Shown here piece by piece: positions 47,263 through 55,573 of a stretch of DNA of 64,000 bases (positions are counted from its first letter, which is position 1; each line of letters opens with the position of its first letter). The notes below the pieces were generated by a model, which ran no database searches, was not told the DNA's origin, and saw nothing but the letters and a program-made list of their open reading frames with translations. The DNA comes from Planctomycetota bacterium (lineage in GTDB: Bacteria; Planctomycetota; UBA1135; UBA2386). The translations under genes were made by a program, and so were the position numbers. The DNA lies in assembly GCA_965228735.1 (NCBI GenBank), contig OZ245838.1:6624001-6688000 (forward strand). Reading direction: 5' to 3'.

Positions 47263-47263
<1 letters not shown>
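46895..47263 (+). CDS. IscU/SufU (NifU N-terminal)-like protein
   Basis: HPVCGDEV and AGCPATMA motifs. Confidence 0.7.
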
Positions 47264-48885
<1,622 letters not shown>

Positions 48886-48892
48886 CCGAGAG

Positions 48893-48927
48893 TGTGCGAA
48901 ATCTGCACAGAGTGCGGATCCCGCGCG
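48893..48927. promoter_or_regulatory. Putative bEBP upstream activating sequences
   Basis: Palindrome TGTGC-N7-GCACA (48893-48909) followed by a degenerate copy GTGC-N7-GCGC. Confidence 0.6.
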
Positions 48928-48991
48928 CCTCGCCGGTTGCGAAGGTGTTCGTAAAGCTATGGAATAAAGATGCTTATGGATTCTCTCATCG

Positions 48992-49007
48992 TGGTACCGG
49001 GATTGCG
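48992..49007 (+). promoter_or_regulatory. Sigma-54 -24/-12 promoter
   Basis: TGGTAC-CGGGA-TTGCG matches TGGYAC-N5-TTGC with exact GG-N10-GC spacing. Confidence 0.75.
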
Positions 49008-49020
49008 ATGGAACGGCTCG

Positions 49021-50853
49021 ATGACGCCCCTCACCCAGCAACTGCGCACCGGCCTGCTCGCCATCGGGTTCGGCGCTGCGGGCCTGCTGGGGGATGCACG
49101 CGGACAGTCGCCCGCCGCCTCCGGCCCGCAGGCTGCACCGCGGCTCGTCGACTCGATCGAAGCGCCGTTGCTCTACCTTGCTCTCGGCGGCAAGACCCGC
49201 GGCGGTGGAGCCCTCGGCGGCGGGGCTGCTGGCGCGGCATCTACGGGTAGGGCGGCCGTGCAGCGGCTGCTCGCCGACCCGGCGCTCGATGCGCTGCTCG
49301 ACGAGTCCCTGCGCGATGAGCCCGCCGCGACGCGGAGCAGCTCGACCGGCCGATCGCTCGCGCTCGTCCGCGGCGTTCTCAGTCGGTGCGCTGGCGAGAT
49401 CGAAGTCGCGATGACGGGCGTCGTGCCCGGGATCGGTCGACCCCTGCTCGTGCTGCGCGCCGAACTGCAGCCGGAACAGGCGAAGAACCTCGACGCCGCG
49501 CTGCGGCCGCAGCCGCAGGTCAGCGGGGGCGGCAGCCGGCTCGCGGCGAACCACCGCAAGATTCGTGGGCAGCAGACCTACGCGATGCTCGGCGAGGACG
49601 GTCGGCTCGCGACCGGGATCGGCCGCCAGGTCGAGCTCGCGGTCGTCGGCAGCGACCTGCTCGTCACGAACGACGCGACGGCGATGGAAGAGTTGCTCGC
49701 GCCGCAGCGCACGACGGCCAGTCCGCGCGCGCTCTCGGGCAACGATCGCTTCGTCGCGCTGAAGCAGCGCATCGCCGCGCCCGCGGGCTCGTTGCTCGTC
49801 TACGGCGACTGGGCCCGGCTCGGCCGGCGCCTCGGCGGTTCGGGGCTGACCGCCCAACTGCTGCTCGACTCCGGTCTCGGTTCGGCGCGCAGCGTGATGG
49901 CTGCGTTGAGCTGCCAGCCGACCGAGAACCGAGCTGCAGCCGATCGCTCGACGGCTGCCGGGACGCGCTTCACCGCGACCGTGCTGCTCGATTTCGAGCA
50001 GGACAACCCCAACGTGCGGGCGCTGCGTGCGCCGGGTCGCAAGGCGCCGCCGTTCTGGGATTCGCCGGGCATCGACGGCTGGCTCACGGCCGCGCTGTCG
50101 GTCAAGCCGCGGCAGCTCGCGCGTGATCTGCCGGGTGGTGGCCTCGGTGGGCTCGTGCTCGCGATGGACCTGCCGGTCGTCGCGACGCGTTCGCCGCGCG
50201 GCGCGCGGCTGTTGCGTGACCTGCGCAACTCCCTCGAGGCCTTCGGTCTCGACTTCAAGCGCAACGTGCTCTCCCGGCTCGGCACGCGGGGCACGGTGCA
50301 GCTGCTGTTCCGGCGCGGCGCCGACGGCGAGGCCGCGACGCGTATCGAGTCGATCTACGCCGTGCGCGCCACGAGCCGCACGGCGGCGAGCAACCTCTTC
50401 ACCGATCTGCGGCGCGCGGCCGAACAGCACGGCATCGGCAAGGTGCTGGCGGGTCGCGACCGGCCGGGTCGTGACAACGTCGACGTGCTCGAGCTGCGCG
50501 TGCACCCGGAAGACGAGCCGACGTGCGTCGCGGTCGCCTCCGACGCGGTGCTCGTCGCGTTCGACGCGACGTCCATCGACGAGTTCCTCACGGAACACCG
50601 CGCCGTCGCGCGGCAGCGCGGCAAGCGGAACTCGCAGGTGGGTGCAGTCGTAGAACGAATCGGAGGGCGAGAGGTCAGCGGCCTCTTCGACCTCGACTTC
50701 ACGCCGTGGCTCGAACGCTTTGCCGACCTGCTCGGGGAACGTGGTGTCGCGGTCGATCTCTCCGGCATTCCGTCGCGGCACGTCGGCTACCTCGACCTGC
50801 AGCCGCGGGACGGCGGAACCATCATTCGAATCTGTGTGCTGTCGTCGCGGTAG
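49021..50853 (+). CDS. Secreted hypothetical protein
   Basis: Signal peptide MTPLTQQLRTGLLAIGFGAAGLLGDARG; start chosen downstream of the sigma54 promoter. Confidence 0.7.
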   Translation: MTPLTQQLRTGLLAIGFGAAGLLGDARGQSPAASGPQAAPRLVDSIEAPLLYLALGGKTRGGGALGGGAAGAASTGRAAVQRLLADPALDALLDESLRDEPAATRSSSTGRSLALVRGVLSRCAGEIEVAMTGVVPGIGRPLLVLRAELQPEQAKNLDAALRPQPQVSGGGSRLAANHRKIRGQQTYAMLGEDGRLATGIGRQVELAVVGSDLLVTNDATAMEELLAPQRTTASPRALSGNDRFVALKQRIAAPAGSLLVYGDWARLGRRLGGSGLTAQLLLDSGLGSARSVMAALSCQPTENRAAADRSTAAGTRFTATVLLDFEQDNPNVRALRAPGRKAPPFWDSPGIDGWLTAALSVKPRQLARDLPGGGLGGLVLAMDLPVVATRSPRGARLLRDLRNSLEAFGLDFKRNVLSRLGTRGTVQLLFRRGADGEAATRIESIYAVRATSRTAASNLFTDLRRAAEQHGIGKVLAGRDRPGRDNVDVLELRVHPEDEPTCVAVASDAVLVAFDATSIDEFLTEHRAVARQRGKRNSQVGAVVERIGGREVSGLFDLDFTPWLERFADLLGERGVAVDLSGIPSRHVGYLDLQPRDGGTIIRICVLSSR

Positions 50854-50918
50854 CGCGTTGCACACCTGACGACCCGCTCGCGCGGGGCTCTTTCACAACA
50901 ACAGGCATTCGACGTCCA

Positions 50919-51264
50919 CGCCGGGCAACCGGCGCGTTCGTCACGGGTGCATGGCTGGTGCTCGTCACACGCCGCTCGAGATCTGGGGCAGGCAGGGCGG
51001 TGTGCGTCGGTCTTTCGCGTGTGTTGCGCGAACCATGCATCCGTTCCTTATTTGGCGCGTGACCTTCGGGGGTCCGATCGGCGTCCCGATTCTGGGGCAG
51101 GCTAGGGACAACGGTCGACCAGTCGCACAAGTGGTGCGAGGGGGTCACGCGCCACATTTCTCATTCTCGGCTCGTCCTTCGAGCCCTTCATCATTCCAGC
51201 TCGGTCTTCCAGCTCGGGGACTTCGTCGCGAGGACAGGCGCGGCGGGGTCCCCGGCTACTTTTT
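50919..51264 (+). ncRNA. Candidate structured non-coding RNA with two tandem junction domains
   Basis: GCAA-tetraloop hairpin, two multi-stem domains sharing loop TCTGGGGCAGGC, terminal hairpin plus U-tract; G-U pairs favour the + strand. Confidence 0.55.
51211..51264 (+). terminator. Intrinsic terminator-like hairpin
   Basis: cggggacttcgtcgcg pairs with cgcggcggggtccccg, followed by acttttt. Confidence 0.6.
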
Positions 51265-51303
51265 GGGCGTTGATCGTCGGCCGCGATCGCGACAATCGTC
51301 GGC

Positions 51304-52764
51304 ATGTTCCTCGCACTGGATCAGGGCACGACGAGCAGCCGCGCGATCGTCTTCGATGCGGGCGGTGCGATCCGCGGTTCGGGTCAGCAGGAGTTCGCGC
51401 AGCACTTCCCGGCGCCGGGGCACGTCGAGCATGACCCCGACGACATCCTGCAGAGTCAACTCGCGGCCGTAGCCGCGGCGCGGCGCGAGGCCGGCGAGCC
51501 CGCGATCACGGCCATCGGGATCACGAACCAGCGCGAGACGGTCGTCGTGTTCGATCGCGCGACGGGGCGGCCGATCCACCGCGCGATCGTCTGGCAGGAT
51601 CGGCGCACGGCAGGGGAGCTGCAGGCGCTCGCCGAGCGCGACGGCGCGGCCGAGCTCGTGCGCACCCGCACCGGGCTGACCCTCGATCCCTACTTCAGCG
51701 CCAGGAAGATCGCCTGGATCCTCGATCACGTGCCCGGGGCGCGCGCGCGGGCCGAGCGCGGCGAGCTCGCGGCCTGCACGGTCGATTCGTGGCTGCTCTG
51801 GCATCTGACGAAGGGCGCCGTGTTCGCGACCGAGCCGAGCAACGCGTCGCGCACGAGTCTGTTCGACCTGCAGACGGGCGACTGGAGCGATGCCCTCTGC
51901 GAACTCTTCGCCGTGCCGCGCGCCGTGTTGCCCGAGGTGCGCCCGTCGGCGGGCGAGTTCGGCGCGGGCGAGCTGCTCGGCGGCGCGCCGGTCTGCGCGA
52001 TGCTCGGCGACCAGCAGAGCGCGTTGTTCGGTCACGCCTGCACGAACATCGGTAACAGCAAGTGCACCTACGGCACCGGCGCGTTCGCGCTCACGAACGT
52101 CGGGACGGCGCCGGCCGATCCGGCGCCCGGCGTGCTGTCGACCGTCGCGTGGCGGCTCGGTGACGTGACGACGTTCGCGCTCGAGGGCAGCGTGCTGGTG
52201 TGCGGCGCGGCGATCCAGTGGCTGCGCGACCAGCTCGGTCTCGTCGCGAGCGCCGCGGATACGGAAGAACTCGCGCGTTCGGTGCCGGACAGCGGCGGGA
52301 TCGTGTTCGTGCCCGCGTTCGCCGGCCTCGGCACGCCGCACTGGGATCCGACCGCGCGCGGCGCGATCGTCGGAATCACCCGCGGGACGTCGAAGGCGCA
52401 CCTCGTGCGCGCGGCGCTCGAAGCGCTCGCGCTGCAGGTCGACGACGTGCTCACGGCGATGGCGGACGGCGGCGGCAGCGGCGAACTGCACGTCGACGGC
52501 GGCGCGACGAGCAACGGCCTGCTGCTCGAGATCCAGGCCGCGTTGCTCGGGCGCCCCGTCGTGCGTCCGGCGCTGCTCGAAGCGACCGCGTTCGGCGCGT
52601 TCCGCATGGCGATGCTGGGAGCCGGCGCCGCGGCGCTCGACGAACTGCCGCGATTGCCGGGCGAGCCGACCCGCGTCGCCCCGGGCGATGGTGTCGCGAT
52701 CGACATCGCGGAACTGCGCGCGCGCTGGCAGAAAGCGGTGCCGCGCACGCGGGGTTGGGTCTGA
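51304..52764 (+). CDS. glpK: Glycerol kinase
   Basis: DQGTTSSRA, GITNQRET, IVWQDRRT, GDQQSALFG, KCTYGTGAF. Confidence 0.93.
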   Translation: MFLALDQGTTSSRAIVFDAGGAIRGSGQQEFAQHFPAPGHVEHDPDDILQSQLAAVAAARREAGEPAITAIGITNQRETVVVFDRATGRPIHRAIVWQDRRTAGELQALAERDGAAELVRTRTGLTLDPYFSARKIAWILDHVPGARARAERGELAACTVDSWLLWHLTKGAVFATEPSNASRTSLFDLQTGDWSDALCELFAVPRAVLPEVRPSAGEFGAGELLGGAPVCAMLGDQQSALFGHACTNIGNSKCTYGTGAFALTNVGTAPADPAPGVLSTVAWRLGDVTTFALEGSVLVCGAAIQWLRDQLGLVASAADTEELARSVPDSGGIVFVPAFAGLGTPHWDPTARGAIVGITRGTSKAHLVRAALEALALQVDDVLTAMADGGGSGELHVDGGATSNGLLLEIQAALLGRPVVRPALLEATAFGAFRMAMLGAGAAALDELPRLPGEPTRVAPGDGVAIDIAELRARWQKAVPRTRGWV

Positions 52765-52816
52765 GCGCCGAGCCGATGCCTTCCCTCGCAGGTCGGCGTG
52801 GCCTACAACGGCAGCC

Positions 52817-55573
52817 ATGGCTGCCCACGACGACGAGTCGCGTGATCCGAAGACGGTGGATCCCGACGCGATGGATCCGGCACGTGATCCGGCTGAAGAC
52901 CCGCTGACGGCCGACGATTCCGACGAGCTGCCCGAATTCGGCGCGGGGACCGACGCGGATGAGGTCGAGTCGGACGACTCGCAATCCAACGAGTCGATGT
53001 CGGACGGCCCGCGCGTGGAGTTGAACGAGGCGGACAACCCGCTCAAGGGCGCCGTCGTCCTGCAGGACCAGGTGCCGGACACGATGTTCGTGTTCCCGCT
53101 CCGGACGGCCGTGCCGTTCCCCAACCTGACGATGCCGCTGCTGCTCGACACCGAGGATGCGCGCGACATCATCGCCAAGGCCGAAGCGCACAACGGGCAC
53201 GTCTTCCTCGTGCTGCAGAAGGACCCGGAGGCCGACGCGGAATCGGCGGACGACGTGCACGAGGTCGGCGTCGTCGCCAAGATCCTCAAGACGCTCAGGC
53301 TGCCGGACGGCGGGTTGTCCGCGATGACGCAGGGGCTCTTGCGGTCACGGCTCGTTCGCGTCGTTCGCAAGAAGCCGCGCCTCGTCGGCCGGGTGCGCGA
53401 GGTCGTCGAGGTGCCGGCCAGCGGCGCGCGGTCGGAGTCGCTCATGCGGCTGCTGCGGCAGCAGATGCAGCGGCTCGCCGAGATGCAGGACACCGCGGAC
53501 CCCGGGTTCACGATGGCGGTGCTCAATGTCGAGAGCCCGTCGCAGCTCGCGGACTTCACGGGCAGCATCGTGCGCAAGGTCGAGGACCGGCAGCGGCTGC
53601 TCGCCGAGGCGGACGTCGAGAAGCGGCTCGAGCTCGCGCTGCAGTTCGCGACCGCCGAGACGGAACTCGTCGAGCTCGACAAGAAGATCCACGGCGAGAT
53701 CCAGAAGAAGACCGAGAAGGCCCAGAAGGACTACTTCCTGCGCGAGCAGATGAAGCTGATCCGGCGCGAGCTCGGGGAGGAACAGGATCCGCGGCTCGCC
53801 GAGCTGCACCGGCTCGAGGAGGCGATCGCGAAGGCCGACATGCCGGAGGCGGCGCTCGCGCGCGCGCAGGAAGAACTGACGCGGCTGCAGACGACGCCCG
53901 TCGAGTCGGCCGAGTACGGGGTGATCCGCAACTACCTCGACTGGCTCACGACGTTGCCATGGTCGCACTCGACGGCGGATCAGCACGACCTCGCGCACGC
54001 CGAACGCGTGCTGCACGACGACCACTACGGCCTCGAGGAGGTCAAGCAGCGCATTCTCGAGTTCCTCGCGGTGCGCAAGCTGCGGCCCGGGCATCAGGGT
54101 TCGATCCTGTGCTTCGCCGGCCCTCCCGGCGTCGGCAAGACGAGCCTCGGTCGCAGCATCGCGCGCGCGATGGGGCGCGAGTTCTGGCGCTTCTCGCTCG
54201 GCGGACTGCGCGACGAGAGCGAGATCAAGGGGCATCGCCGCACCTACATCGGCGCGATGCCGGGTCGCATCCTGCAGGGCCTCAAGACGACGGGCAGCAA
54301 CAACCCGGTCATCCTGCTCGACGAGATCGACAAGCTCGGCAGTGACTTCCGCGGCGATCCGAGCTCGGCGCTGCTCGAGGTGCTCGATCCGGAGCAGAAC
54401 CACGCGTTCCTCGATCACTACCTCGACGTGCCGTTCGACCTGTCCAAGGTCATGTTCCTCGCGACGGCGAACGTGCTGTCGCAGATCCCGGAGCCGCTGC
54501 GCGATCGCATGGAGATCCTCGAGATCCCGGGCTACCTGCTCGAGGAGAAGGTCGAGATCGCGCGGCGCCATCTGCTGCCGCGGCAGCTCGAACGCCACGG
54601 TCTGCTGGGCAGGCACCTGTCGATCACGCAGCCGGTCTGGCGGCGCGTCGTGGCCGAGCACACGCGTGAGGCCGGCGTGCGCGGACTCGACAAGGTCGTG
54701 CAGCGGCTGTGCCGCAGGACGGCGCTCGCGGTTGCGAAGAAGAGCAAGGCGCCGGGGCGGCTGAGCTTCGCGGAGATGGAGGAGCTGCTCGGGCAGCCGA
54801 AGTTCAAGGCGGACGAACGGCGCAAACACCACTTCGCGGGTGTCGTGCAGGGGCTCGCGTGGACGCCGTTCGGCGGCGACGTGCTCTACATCGAGGCGGT
54901 CGGGAGTCCGGGGTCCGGGCGGCTGCAGCTCACGGGCAGTCTCGGGGACGTCATGAGCGAGTCGGCGCGGCTCGCGATGAGCTACCTCAAGAGCCGGGCC
55001 GAGCGCTTCGAGCTCGATCTCGAGGCGGTCGCCAAGACCGATCTGCATCTGCACTTCCCCGCGGGCGCGATCAAGAAAGACGGGCCGTCGGCGGGGATCG
55101 CGATCGCGAGCGCGTTCTACTCGTGTCTCACCGGCCGCACGGCACCTGGCGACATTGCGATGACGGGCGAGCTGACCGTGGTCGGTGAAGTGCTGCCGAT
55201 CGGCGGCGTGCGCGAGAAGCTGCTCGCCGCGAAGAACTTCGGCCTGCGTCGCGTGCTGCTGCCGAAGGGCAACGAGCCCGACATCGTGGAGTTGCGGCCG
55301 GACCTCCGAGAAGGCATCGAGATCACGTTCGTCGCGACGTTCGACGAAGTGTTCGAGATCTTGTTCGAGCCGGGCGGGCGCGCGCGCGCGAAAACCGCGA
55401 CGAAGCGACCCGCGAAGAAGAGGCCCGCGAAGAAGAAGCCGGCAAAGAAGAAGCCAGTGAAGAAAGGGCCAGCGAAGAAAAAGCCGACGAAGGTCGCCAA
55501 GAAGGCCAAGAAGAAGTCGGCGAAGAAGAAGCCGGCCAGGAAGAAGGCGCCAGCGCGCCGCCGCGCGCGCTAG
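52817..55573 (+). CDS. lon: Lon protease (endopeptidase La)
   Basis: GPPGVGKTS, GHRRTYIGAMPG, KDGPSAG catalytic Ser, PIGGVREK catalytic Lys. Confidence 0.97.
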   Translation: MAAHDDESRDPKTVDPDAMDPARDPAEDPLTADDSDELPEFGAGTDADEVESDDSQSNESMSDGPRVELNEADNPLKGAVVLQDQVPDTMFVFPLRTAVPFPNLTMPLLLDTEDARDIIAKAEAHNGHVFLVLQKDPEADAESADDVHEVGVVAKILKTLRLPDGGLSAMTQGLLRSRLVRVVRKKPRLVGRVREVVEVPASGARSESLMRLLRQQMQRLAEMQDTADPGFTMAVLNVESPSQLADFTGSIVRKVEDRQRLLAEADVEKRLELALQFATAETELVELDKKIHGEIQKKTEKAQKDYFLREQMKLIRRELGEEQDPRLAELHRLEEAIAKADMPEAALARAQEELTRLQTTPVESAEYGVIRNYLDWLTTLPWSHSTADQHDLAHAERVLHDDHYGLEEVKQRILEFLAVRKLRPGHQGSILCFAGPPGVGKTSLGRSIARAMGREFWRFSLGGLRDESEIKGHRRTYIGAMPGRILQGLKTTGSNNPVILLDEIDKLGSDFRGDPSSALLEVLDPEQNHAFLDHYLDVPFDLSKVMFLATANVLSQIPEPLRDRMEILEIPGYLLEEKVEIARRHLLPRQLERHGLLGRHLSITQPVWRRVVAEHTREAGVRGLDKVVQRLCRRTALAVAKKSKAPGRLSFAEMEELLGQPKFKADERRKHHFAGVVQGLAWTPFGGDVLYIEAVGSPGSGRLQLTGSLGDVMSESARLAMSYLKSRAERFELDLEAVAKTDLHLHFPAGAIKKDGPSAGIAIASAFYSCLTGRTAPGDIAMTGELTVVGEVLPIGGVREKLLAAKNFGLRRVLLPKGNEPDIVELRPDLREGIEITFVATFDEVFEILFEPGGRARAKTATKRPAKKRPAKKKPAKKKPVKKGPAKKKPTKVAKKAKKKSAKKKPARKKAPARRRAR

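Follow-up and report, generated by a model that had tools for sequence, protein, structure and literature searches.

CsrB-type RNAs are described as displaying repeated loop motifs on hairpins (PMC8383071), and alpha-r14 RNAs as having a single conserved motif that recurs in the loops of all three hairpins (PMC3346310). In the cbrB–crcZ layout, CrcZ lies 3' of the gene for a sigma-54 activator, and can arise either by transcription from a promoter of its own or by cleavage of a longer RNA (PMC5113210). BoxA sites are reported to load NusB/S10 and to shield rRNA and CRISPR transcripts from Rho (PMC13753749; PMC5725501). Rhodopirellula-1 (Weinberg 2010) is listed as a structured RNA motif of Planctomycetes (PMC2864571).

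We compare with these systems an array of structured units found in a window of 64,000 nt (the whole stretch analyzed, positions 6,624,001 to 6,688,000 of contig OZ245838.1, assembly GCA_965228735.1) from a Planctomycetota bacterium; its features are collected in Table 1. Like CsrB, CsrC, RsmY, and RsmZ, the array repeats a short motif in loops on unrelated stems, has pyrimidine or single-stranded linkers, and ends with a terminator. Unlike CsrB and RsmY, it lacks GGA in its first two units (none of 94 core loops contains GGA, which is confined to the variant third unit of one genus), presents one to four sites on long stems, and is preceded by a boxA-like site; the partner CsrA (PF02599) was not found in this single-contig, 93%-complete genome, with positive controls. 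CrcZ, a CbrB/RpoN-driven Hfq–Crc sponge of Pseudomonas, resembles the array in its location 3' of an activator with a −24/−12 promoter, a likeness of sequence pattern only; it differs in that a protein gene usually stands between activator and array, and Hfq (PF17209) was not found in the same 93%-complete genome. Motifs of CrcZ are A-rich and unstructured, whereas the loops of the array are G-rich and structured.

With the cuckoo-type alpha-r14 RNAs of Alphaproteobacteria the array shares a tandem, modular organization of several hairpins with an identical loop motif, but the alpha-r14 motif is anti-Shine–Dalgarno, while that of the array is G-rich and has no enriched start-codon target. BoxA-led rRNA operons and CRISPR arrays similarly have boxA before a structured, untranslated, repeated RNA (PMC13753749; PMC5725501), but the array contains no spacers, cas genes, or rRNA, and the role of its boxA is predicted. 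Rhodopirellula-1 has another consensus and shape (supplement of PMC2864571), and is classed as cis-regulatory. Finally, REP and MITE elements occur as many dispersed copies with the motif in a palindrome, whereas the array occupies one locus and has the motif in a loop. Judged by these features, the array fails membership in the CsrB, CrcZ, and alpha-r14 classes.

Table 1. Features of the array locus, in window coordinates
Feature	Position	Strand	Remarks
Sigma-54 enhancer-binding protein, predicted activator of the transcript	47263..48885	+	GAF + AAA+ + HTH
Palindrome, predicted activator binding site	48893..48909	+	left half-site invariant in 7/7 aligned
Predicted sigma-54 −24/−12 promoter	48992..49006	+	consensus spacing in the window
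DUF3352-like gene, product likely exported	49021..50853	+	usual but dispensable 5' neighbor
Candidate internal promoter-like motif, weak	50833..50861	+	two boxes 16–17 nt apart
BoxA-like site, predicted NusB/S10 loading site	50887..50899	+	resembles the rrn boxA of this genome
Tetraloop leader hairpin	50919..50935	+	hairpin usual at this position; sequence unconserved
Unit 1, three-way junction	50943..51044	+	core loop 9-mer 50985–50993
Unit 2, three-way junction	51053..51154	+	core loop 9-mer 51094–51102
Unit 3 and predicted intrinsic terminator	51214..51264	+	simple 17-bp hairpin, then U run
glpK, neighbor outside the element	51304..52764	+	possible own −10 box 51291–51296

The original prediction was of two domains of the same shape presenting an identical 12-nt loop, with a tetraloop hairpin before and a terminator after them. 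Both long stems (50943–50954 with 51033–51044, and 51053–51067 with 51140–51154) indeed pair, with G–U pairs; the 12-mer is present at 50982–50993 and 51091–51102; and the flanking tetraloop hairpin and hairpin with a U run (51214–51265) are in place. Both units are three-way junctions of ~102 nt. In unit 1 the side hairpin is absent from the single-sequence minimum free energy (MFE) structure, the three-way form being 3.3 kcal/mol less stable, but it is retained in homologues (97.5% of cells paired). Both copies of the 12-nt loop stand, but the conserved core is 9 nt and not 12; the minimal unit is a stem with the loop 9-mer GGGGCAGGC. Likewise, the terminator was called by the terminator scan (fold z = −3.7), but its hairpin is also a third unit, whose loop (51231–51239) departs from the core by two G-to-A substitutions, at positions 1 and 4. 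This loop variant is identical on differing stems in 3/3 genomes of the genus, and a terminal unit resembling unit 3 is seen in three further loci. The identity of unit 3 had been missed originally, as had the boxA-like site and the palindrome with promoter at 48893–49006.

The 391-nt array region folds with z = −5.3 (0/100 shuffles as stable). The plus strand is favored by fold energy (−191.5 vs. −155.5 kcal/mol) and by the prevalence of G–U over A–C in stems (232 vs. 41, a count biased by the stem finder used). Taken alone, the occurrence of a 12-nt repeat within 450 nt of intergenic sequence is only mildly unusual, a repeat of at least 12 nt being reached in 56 of 2000 Markov-simulated gaps; a third genomic copy of the 12-mer lies within a coding sequence and has no stem, while a profile HMM of the units finds a single locus in this 7.19-Mb genome. 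The strong support for the element is comparative, and does not come from the 12-nt repeat by itself.

When 20 units are aligned with MAFFT, unfitted, the paired cells amount to 90.2%, compared with 78.4% in shuffled controls and 26–46% with slid partners, and double-sided changes are seen in 17 of 24 pairs, these controls correcting for relatedness only partly. Alignment fitted to the model (82 distinct rows, a few of them spurious or partial) gives 94.9% paired cells and double changes in 21 of 24 pairs. The stems thus vary in a compensated manner around an unchanging loop core, which supports selection on RNA structure, as had been proposed from the two domains of the window.

The loop is 13–23 nt long among 113 distinct units, with 1–4 units per array; plain-hairpin arrays also have 1–4 units with the same loop 9-mer, and pyrimidine-rich linkers between them. 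The last position of the core is changed from C to U in 2 of 94 loops. As the loop counts (94 loops, 47 loci) came from a motif-selected set, independent evidence for the invariance is provided by the synteny-based set: the exact 9-mer is present in hairpin loops at loci fetched via neighboring proteins and not via the motif. The three-way junction is a clade-specific elaboration of the plain hairpin unit, the loop motif having shifted from one to the other inside one family. In one genome (G064, L065:1604-1725), a 120-nt pyrimidine-rich insertion parts two units, both of them intact.

Of the 91 genomes of this Planctomycetota family, 77 carry the array, 55 of them as a three-way junction and 22 as a plain stem; it is absent in five, and nine are uncalled. 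A DNA search (61 genomes) yielded homologous gaps with 1–3 units of the same shape; a model of the units matches 57/91 family genomes; synteny with the upstream protein, lon, or the activator added 20 genomes missed by the model; and a metagenome pattern scan gave 19 more loci. In G007, G035, G061, G096, and G097 (79–96% complete), the array is absent at the locus, and the minimal-hairpin model shows no credible match.

Outside the family, where these searches would miss a diverged loop, the first model matched 1 of 131 genomes and the second 2 of 97; all three matches (G200, G155, G175) were rejected, having no loop or no array. The tandem pattern occurs in 1/248 other genomes of the class and 5/401 genomes of the phylum sample, in none as hairpin loops, and upstream of lon the motif is present in none of the 27 out-of-family loci listed of 35. 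Among 47 viral loci with the tandem pattern no homologue was found; the best viral model match (27 bits, L167:940-1125), a segment of a phage gene in which 62 nt are repeated exactly three times in tandem, was rejected as what would be either an assembly artifact or an intragenic duplication. Rfam 15 has no match in the window at gathering thresholds (best E 3.4 over 50000–52000) and none at E ≤ 1 in 10 homologous loci, in line with the family having been unrecognized in the original prediction. The full-text literature that was searched, a scope leaving out later motif-survey supplements and most subscription papers, contains no description of this RNA, and among the 20 papers listed in one search the 9-mer occurs in a single one, a splicing review. 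On these results, the array is a real, family-restricted, modular structured RNA element without an Rfam family.

Among known RNAs, SRP RNA, 5S RNA, and tmRNA were rejected, as a canonical SRP RNA, two 5S, and a tmRNA are encoded elsewhere in the genome; 6S RNA was rejected given the modular 55- or 105-nt units as opposed to a single ~190-nt rod with a central bubble, and RF00013 has no match in this genome. It is very improbable that the array is a passive 3'-end stabilizer, a REP-like repeat, or a mobile relic without function in trans. Runs of hairpins do stabilize mRNA ends, and the Planctomycetota repeats among the phylum matches contain the same 9-mer, but these repeats pair it in a palindrome, while in the array it is unpaired in a loop; moreover, there is one locus in this genome, the matches are adjacent in relatives, and the array outlives its neighboring DUF3352-like gene. 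This reading is largely refuted.

The gene downstream of the array is lon in 22 of the 47 loci, glpK in 18, and neither in 7; upstream, the DUF3352-like gene is seen in 41 and nifU in 5. The product of the former has no Pfam or NCBIfam match, and its ESM Atlas neighbors belong to clusters where DUF3352 accounts for 11–13% of members, a lead only. At some loci the array survives the loss of this gene, and in 5/47 it is kept with nifU immediately 5' and the activator not upstream, hence control by sigma-54 does not extend to every locus. The arrays of G011 and G022 come after the activator and the DUF3352-like gene, apart from glpK–lon; in these two genomes and in G014, G027, and G021, arrays precede unrelated or oppositely oriented genes; and five genomes have glpK–lon without the array. 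The changing downstream gene and the dispensable three-way junction, a possible ligand pocket missing in 22 genomes that keep the loop, rule against the tandem riboswitch-like leader of glpK that was one of the initial suggestions; nor is the position of the array fixed 5' of functionally related genes, as that of a tandem riboswitch would be.

The same arrangement bears on cis-acting attenuation, by which a loop-bound factor would use boxA and terminator-like hairpins to set read-through into glpK–lon. The units are followed by U/C-rich tracts, lon or glpK lies downstream in 40 of 47 loci, and a boxA with a hairpin is reminiscent of phage nut sites. However, arrays stand before unrelated or oppositely oriented genes, glpK–lon does without the array in the five genomes, and glpK and lon each have a putative −10 box of their own near the start codon, so we consider attenuation improbable. 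The putative glpK box would possibly make this gene leaderless. Among genes with free upstream space, as delimited by our own gene caller, Shine–Dalgarno use in this genome is weak, leaders are C-rich, and A/T peaks are seen at −11/−7 before starts; together these suggest many leaderless mRNAs. The Lon protease of the window (52688–55573) has a lysine-rich C-terminal tail with repeated KK-P-A motifs.

The activator, whose start at 47263 is taken from our own gene caller, matches Sigma54_activat, GAF, and HTH_8 of Pfam, and scores below all named NCBIfam equivalog cut-offs. The palindrome precedes the DUF3352-like gene or the hairpin in 8/8 of the loci listed; in G022 it is located 2 kb beyond the activator, after inserted genes. 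A −24/−12-like promoter follows the palindrome at ~80–150 nt in seven loci, in the same alignment columns in 5/7 and shifted in 2/7; the strict promoter pattern matches only the window and L101, hence the other −24/−12 calls were made visually. Two genomes, G094 and G028, have the hairpin after such a promoter with no homologue of the DUF3352-like gene between them. The palindrome and the promoter support the original proposal of a multi-site sRNA or protein sponge linked to a sigma-54 transcript.

The internal promoter-like motif is seen in 25 of 61 upstream windows and in 1 of 251 control windows, the pattern having been defined post hoc; it is retained in four nifU-adjacent loci that have lost the DUF3352-like gene, and overlaps the coding end in most loci. 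No regulon was found for it in this genome, and an ECF regulon was rejected, since the other intergenic matches are mostly a MITE-like repeat. This intergenic repeat is ~170 nt long, has terminal inverted repeats, and occurs in at least seven dispersed copies in the genome (contig C1, near 2147570, 3410732, and 5526289 on the plus strand, and 6958260, 2806087, 6972682, and 1303700 on the minus strand).

The boxA pattern, defined after looking, occurs 14 times genome-wide, four times at rrn and once at the array. With a threshold of p ≤ 0.05, the boxA match is significant in 22 of the 47 loci and not in the other 25; a boxA-like site is present in 12 of 15 rrn leaders of relatives, and NusB is encoded in this genome.

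The array is likely a non-coding RNA, and we prefer, with a probability of about 0.45, the reading that it is a sigma-54-induced, multi-site decoy titrating a sequence-specific RNA-binding protein. The activator would sense a signal via its GAF domain and drive a sigma-54 transcript running through the DUF3352-like gene into the array; NusB/S10 loaded on boxA would let the polymerase cross the untranslated, pyrimidine-rich array, spared Rho termination; and the last hairpin, unit 3, would terminate the transcript. The RNA could act whole or after cleavage in the U/C-rich linkers, and each loop would bind one copy of the partner, so that the number of units would set the capacity. A fixed loop on interchangeable stems, with variable copy number, argues for a repeated binding site. 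If the array is a sponge, the loop would be bait for an RNA-binding regulator other than Hfq or CsrA, and boxA/Nus protection would extend to a regulatory RNA; the narrow range limits the general impact unless the partner proves widespread.

Against a sponge, sponges usually mimic mRNA sites, but in this genome the 9-mer shows no enrichment around start codons (0.54 per 100 kb, two sites, vs. 0.86 in coding sequence), and an invariant, GC-rich core of 9 nt adjoining the 3' strand of the stem would fit a pairing seed as well. Partner searches were run on the single contig of this 93%-complete genome: OST-HTH/LOTUS families have no match there; two RRM proteins are encoded, and nothing ties either of them to the array RNA; Lon as a binder of G-rich RNA was rejected, as arrays occur away from lon.

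An RNA partner is unlikely, though clearly more plausible than attenuation. Here the array would be a base-pairing sRNA with a repeated seed, its loops pairing, Hfq-free, with a C-rich complementary 9-mer in one or several mRNAs. A GC-rich core of 9 nt, placed toward the 3' side within a large open loop, is typical of seeds, alpha-r14 with its motif in three hairpin loops provides a precedent (PMC3346310), and the C-to-U change at the last core position keeps a wobble pair. The loop target search suggested initially, run in one genome with a rough gene caller of our own, gave five sites exactly complementary to the 9-mer in start windows vs. about two expected, and leaders are C-rich; but the loop duplexes with start regions are no better than those further upstream (−9.7 vs. 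−10.7 kcal/mol, 600 genes), and the best candidate, a 10-bp complementary site before greA, was rejected as lost in 5/5 relatives. A conserved loop complement is absent from 16S, tRNAs, tmRNA, and SRP RNA, and the G-to-A changes of unit 3 would break pairing. We thus prefer a protein partner, as start codons have no enriched pairing target, the greA site is unconserved, the stable RNAs have no conserved complement, and unit 3 tolerates purine swaps. At G000:C1:5522568-5524745 (-) a protein of 726 aa is encoded, presumably GreA-like by its sequence features; its start codon is TTG, its N-terminal extension is long, and homologues occur in 5/5 relatives.

Pairing with rRNA or tRNA was rejected, the best runs being 8–9 bp with wobble, i.e., at chance level, and 16S helix 7 varying among relatives. 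A 10/11 match in the rrn leader of this genome was rejected too, as it is missing from 15 other leaders.

A relation of another kind to rRNA would be mimicry: the loops may imitate the P-loop (helix 80) of 23S rRNA, a GGG triloop on three pairs, and bind tRNA CCA ends or a P-loop-binding factor. In the fuller form, the array would be a sigma-54-induced, Nus-protected mimic of the peptidyl-transferase center tuning translation under a specific signal; if true, this would be a free-standing mimic of that ribosomal center. P-loop bases G2251/G2252 are described as pairing with the tRNA end (PMC7049736). The 23S P-loop of this genome shares 9 of 11 letters with the loop consensus, at the same register within the loop, RNAalifold gives the same three pairs around a GGG triloop (mean pair probability 0.54–0.58), and an rRNA-type boxA stands ahead of the array. 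Against this, simulated operons contain on average 1.66 matches of at least 9/11 (0.13 for the exact core); the mini-stem is broken at one pair in 13 of 113 units and at the next in 11 of 113, and also in at least three of four units of G011 and G022; and the invariant final core bases differ from the P-loop stem. Because chance often yields such a match and some units have a broken mini-stem, we hold both forms of P-loop mimicry to be highly improbable.

A tRNA-Asp (5050536–5050612) and a tRNA-like call (5064306–5064405), 14 kb apart on C1, have a common 3' half, the pattern that integration of an element at tRNA-Asp would leave.
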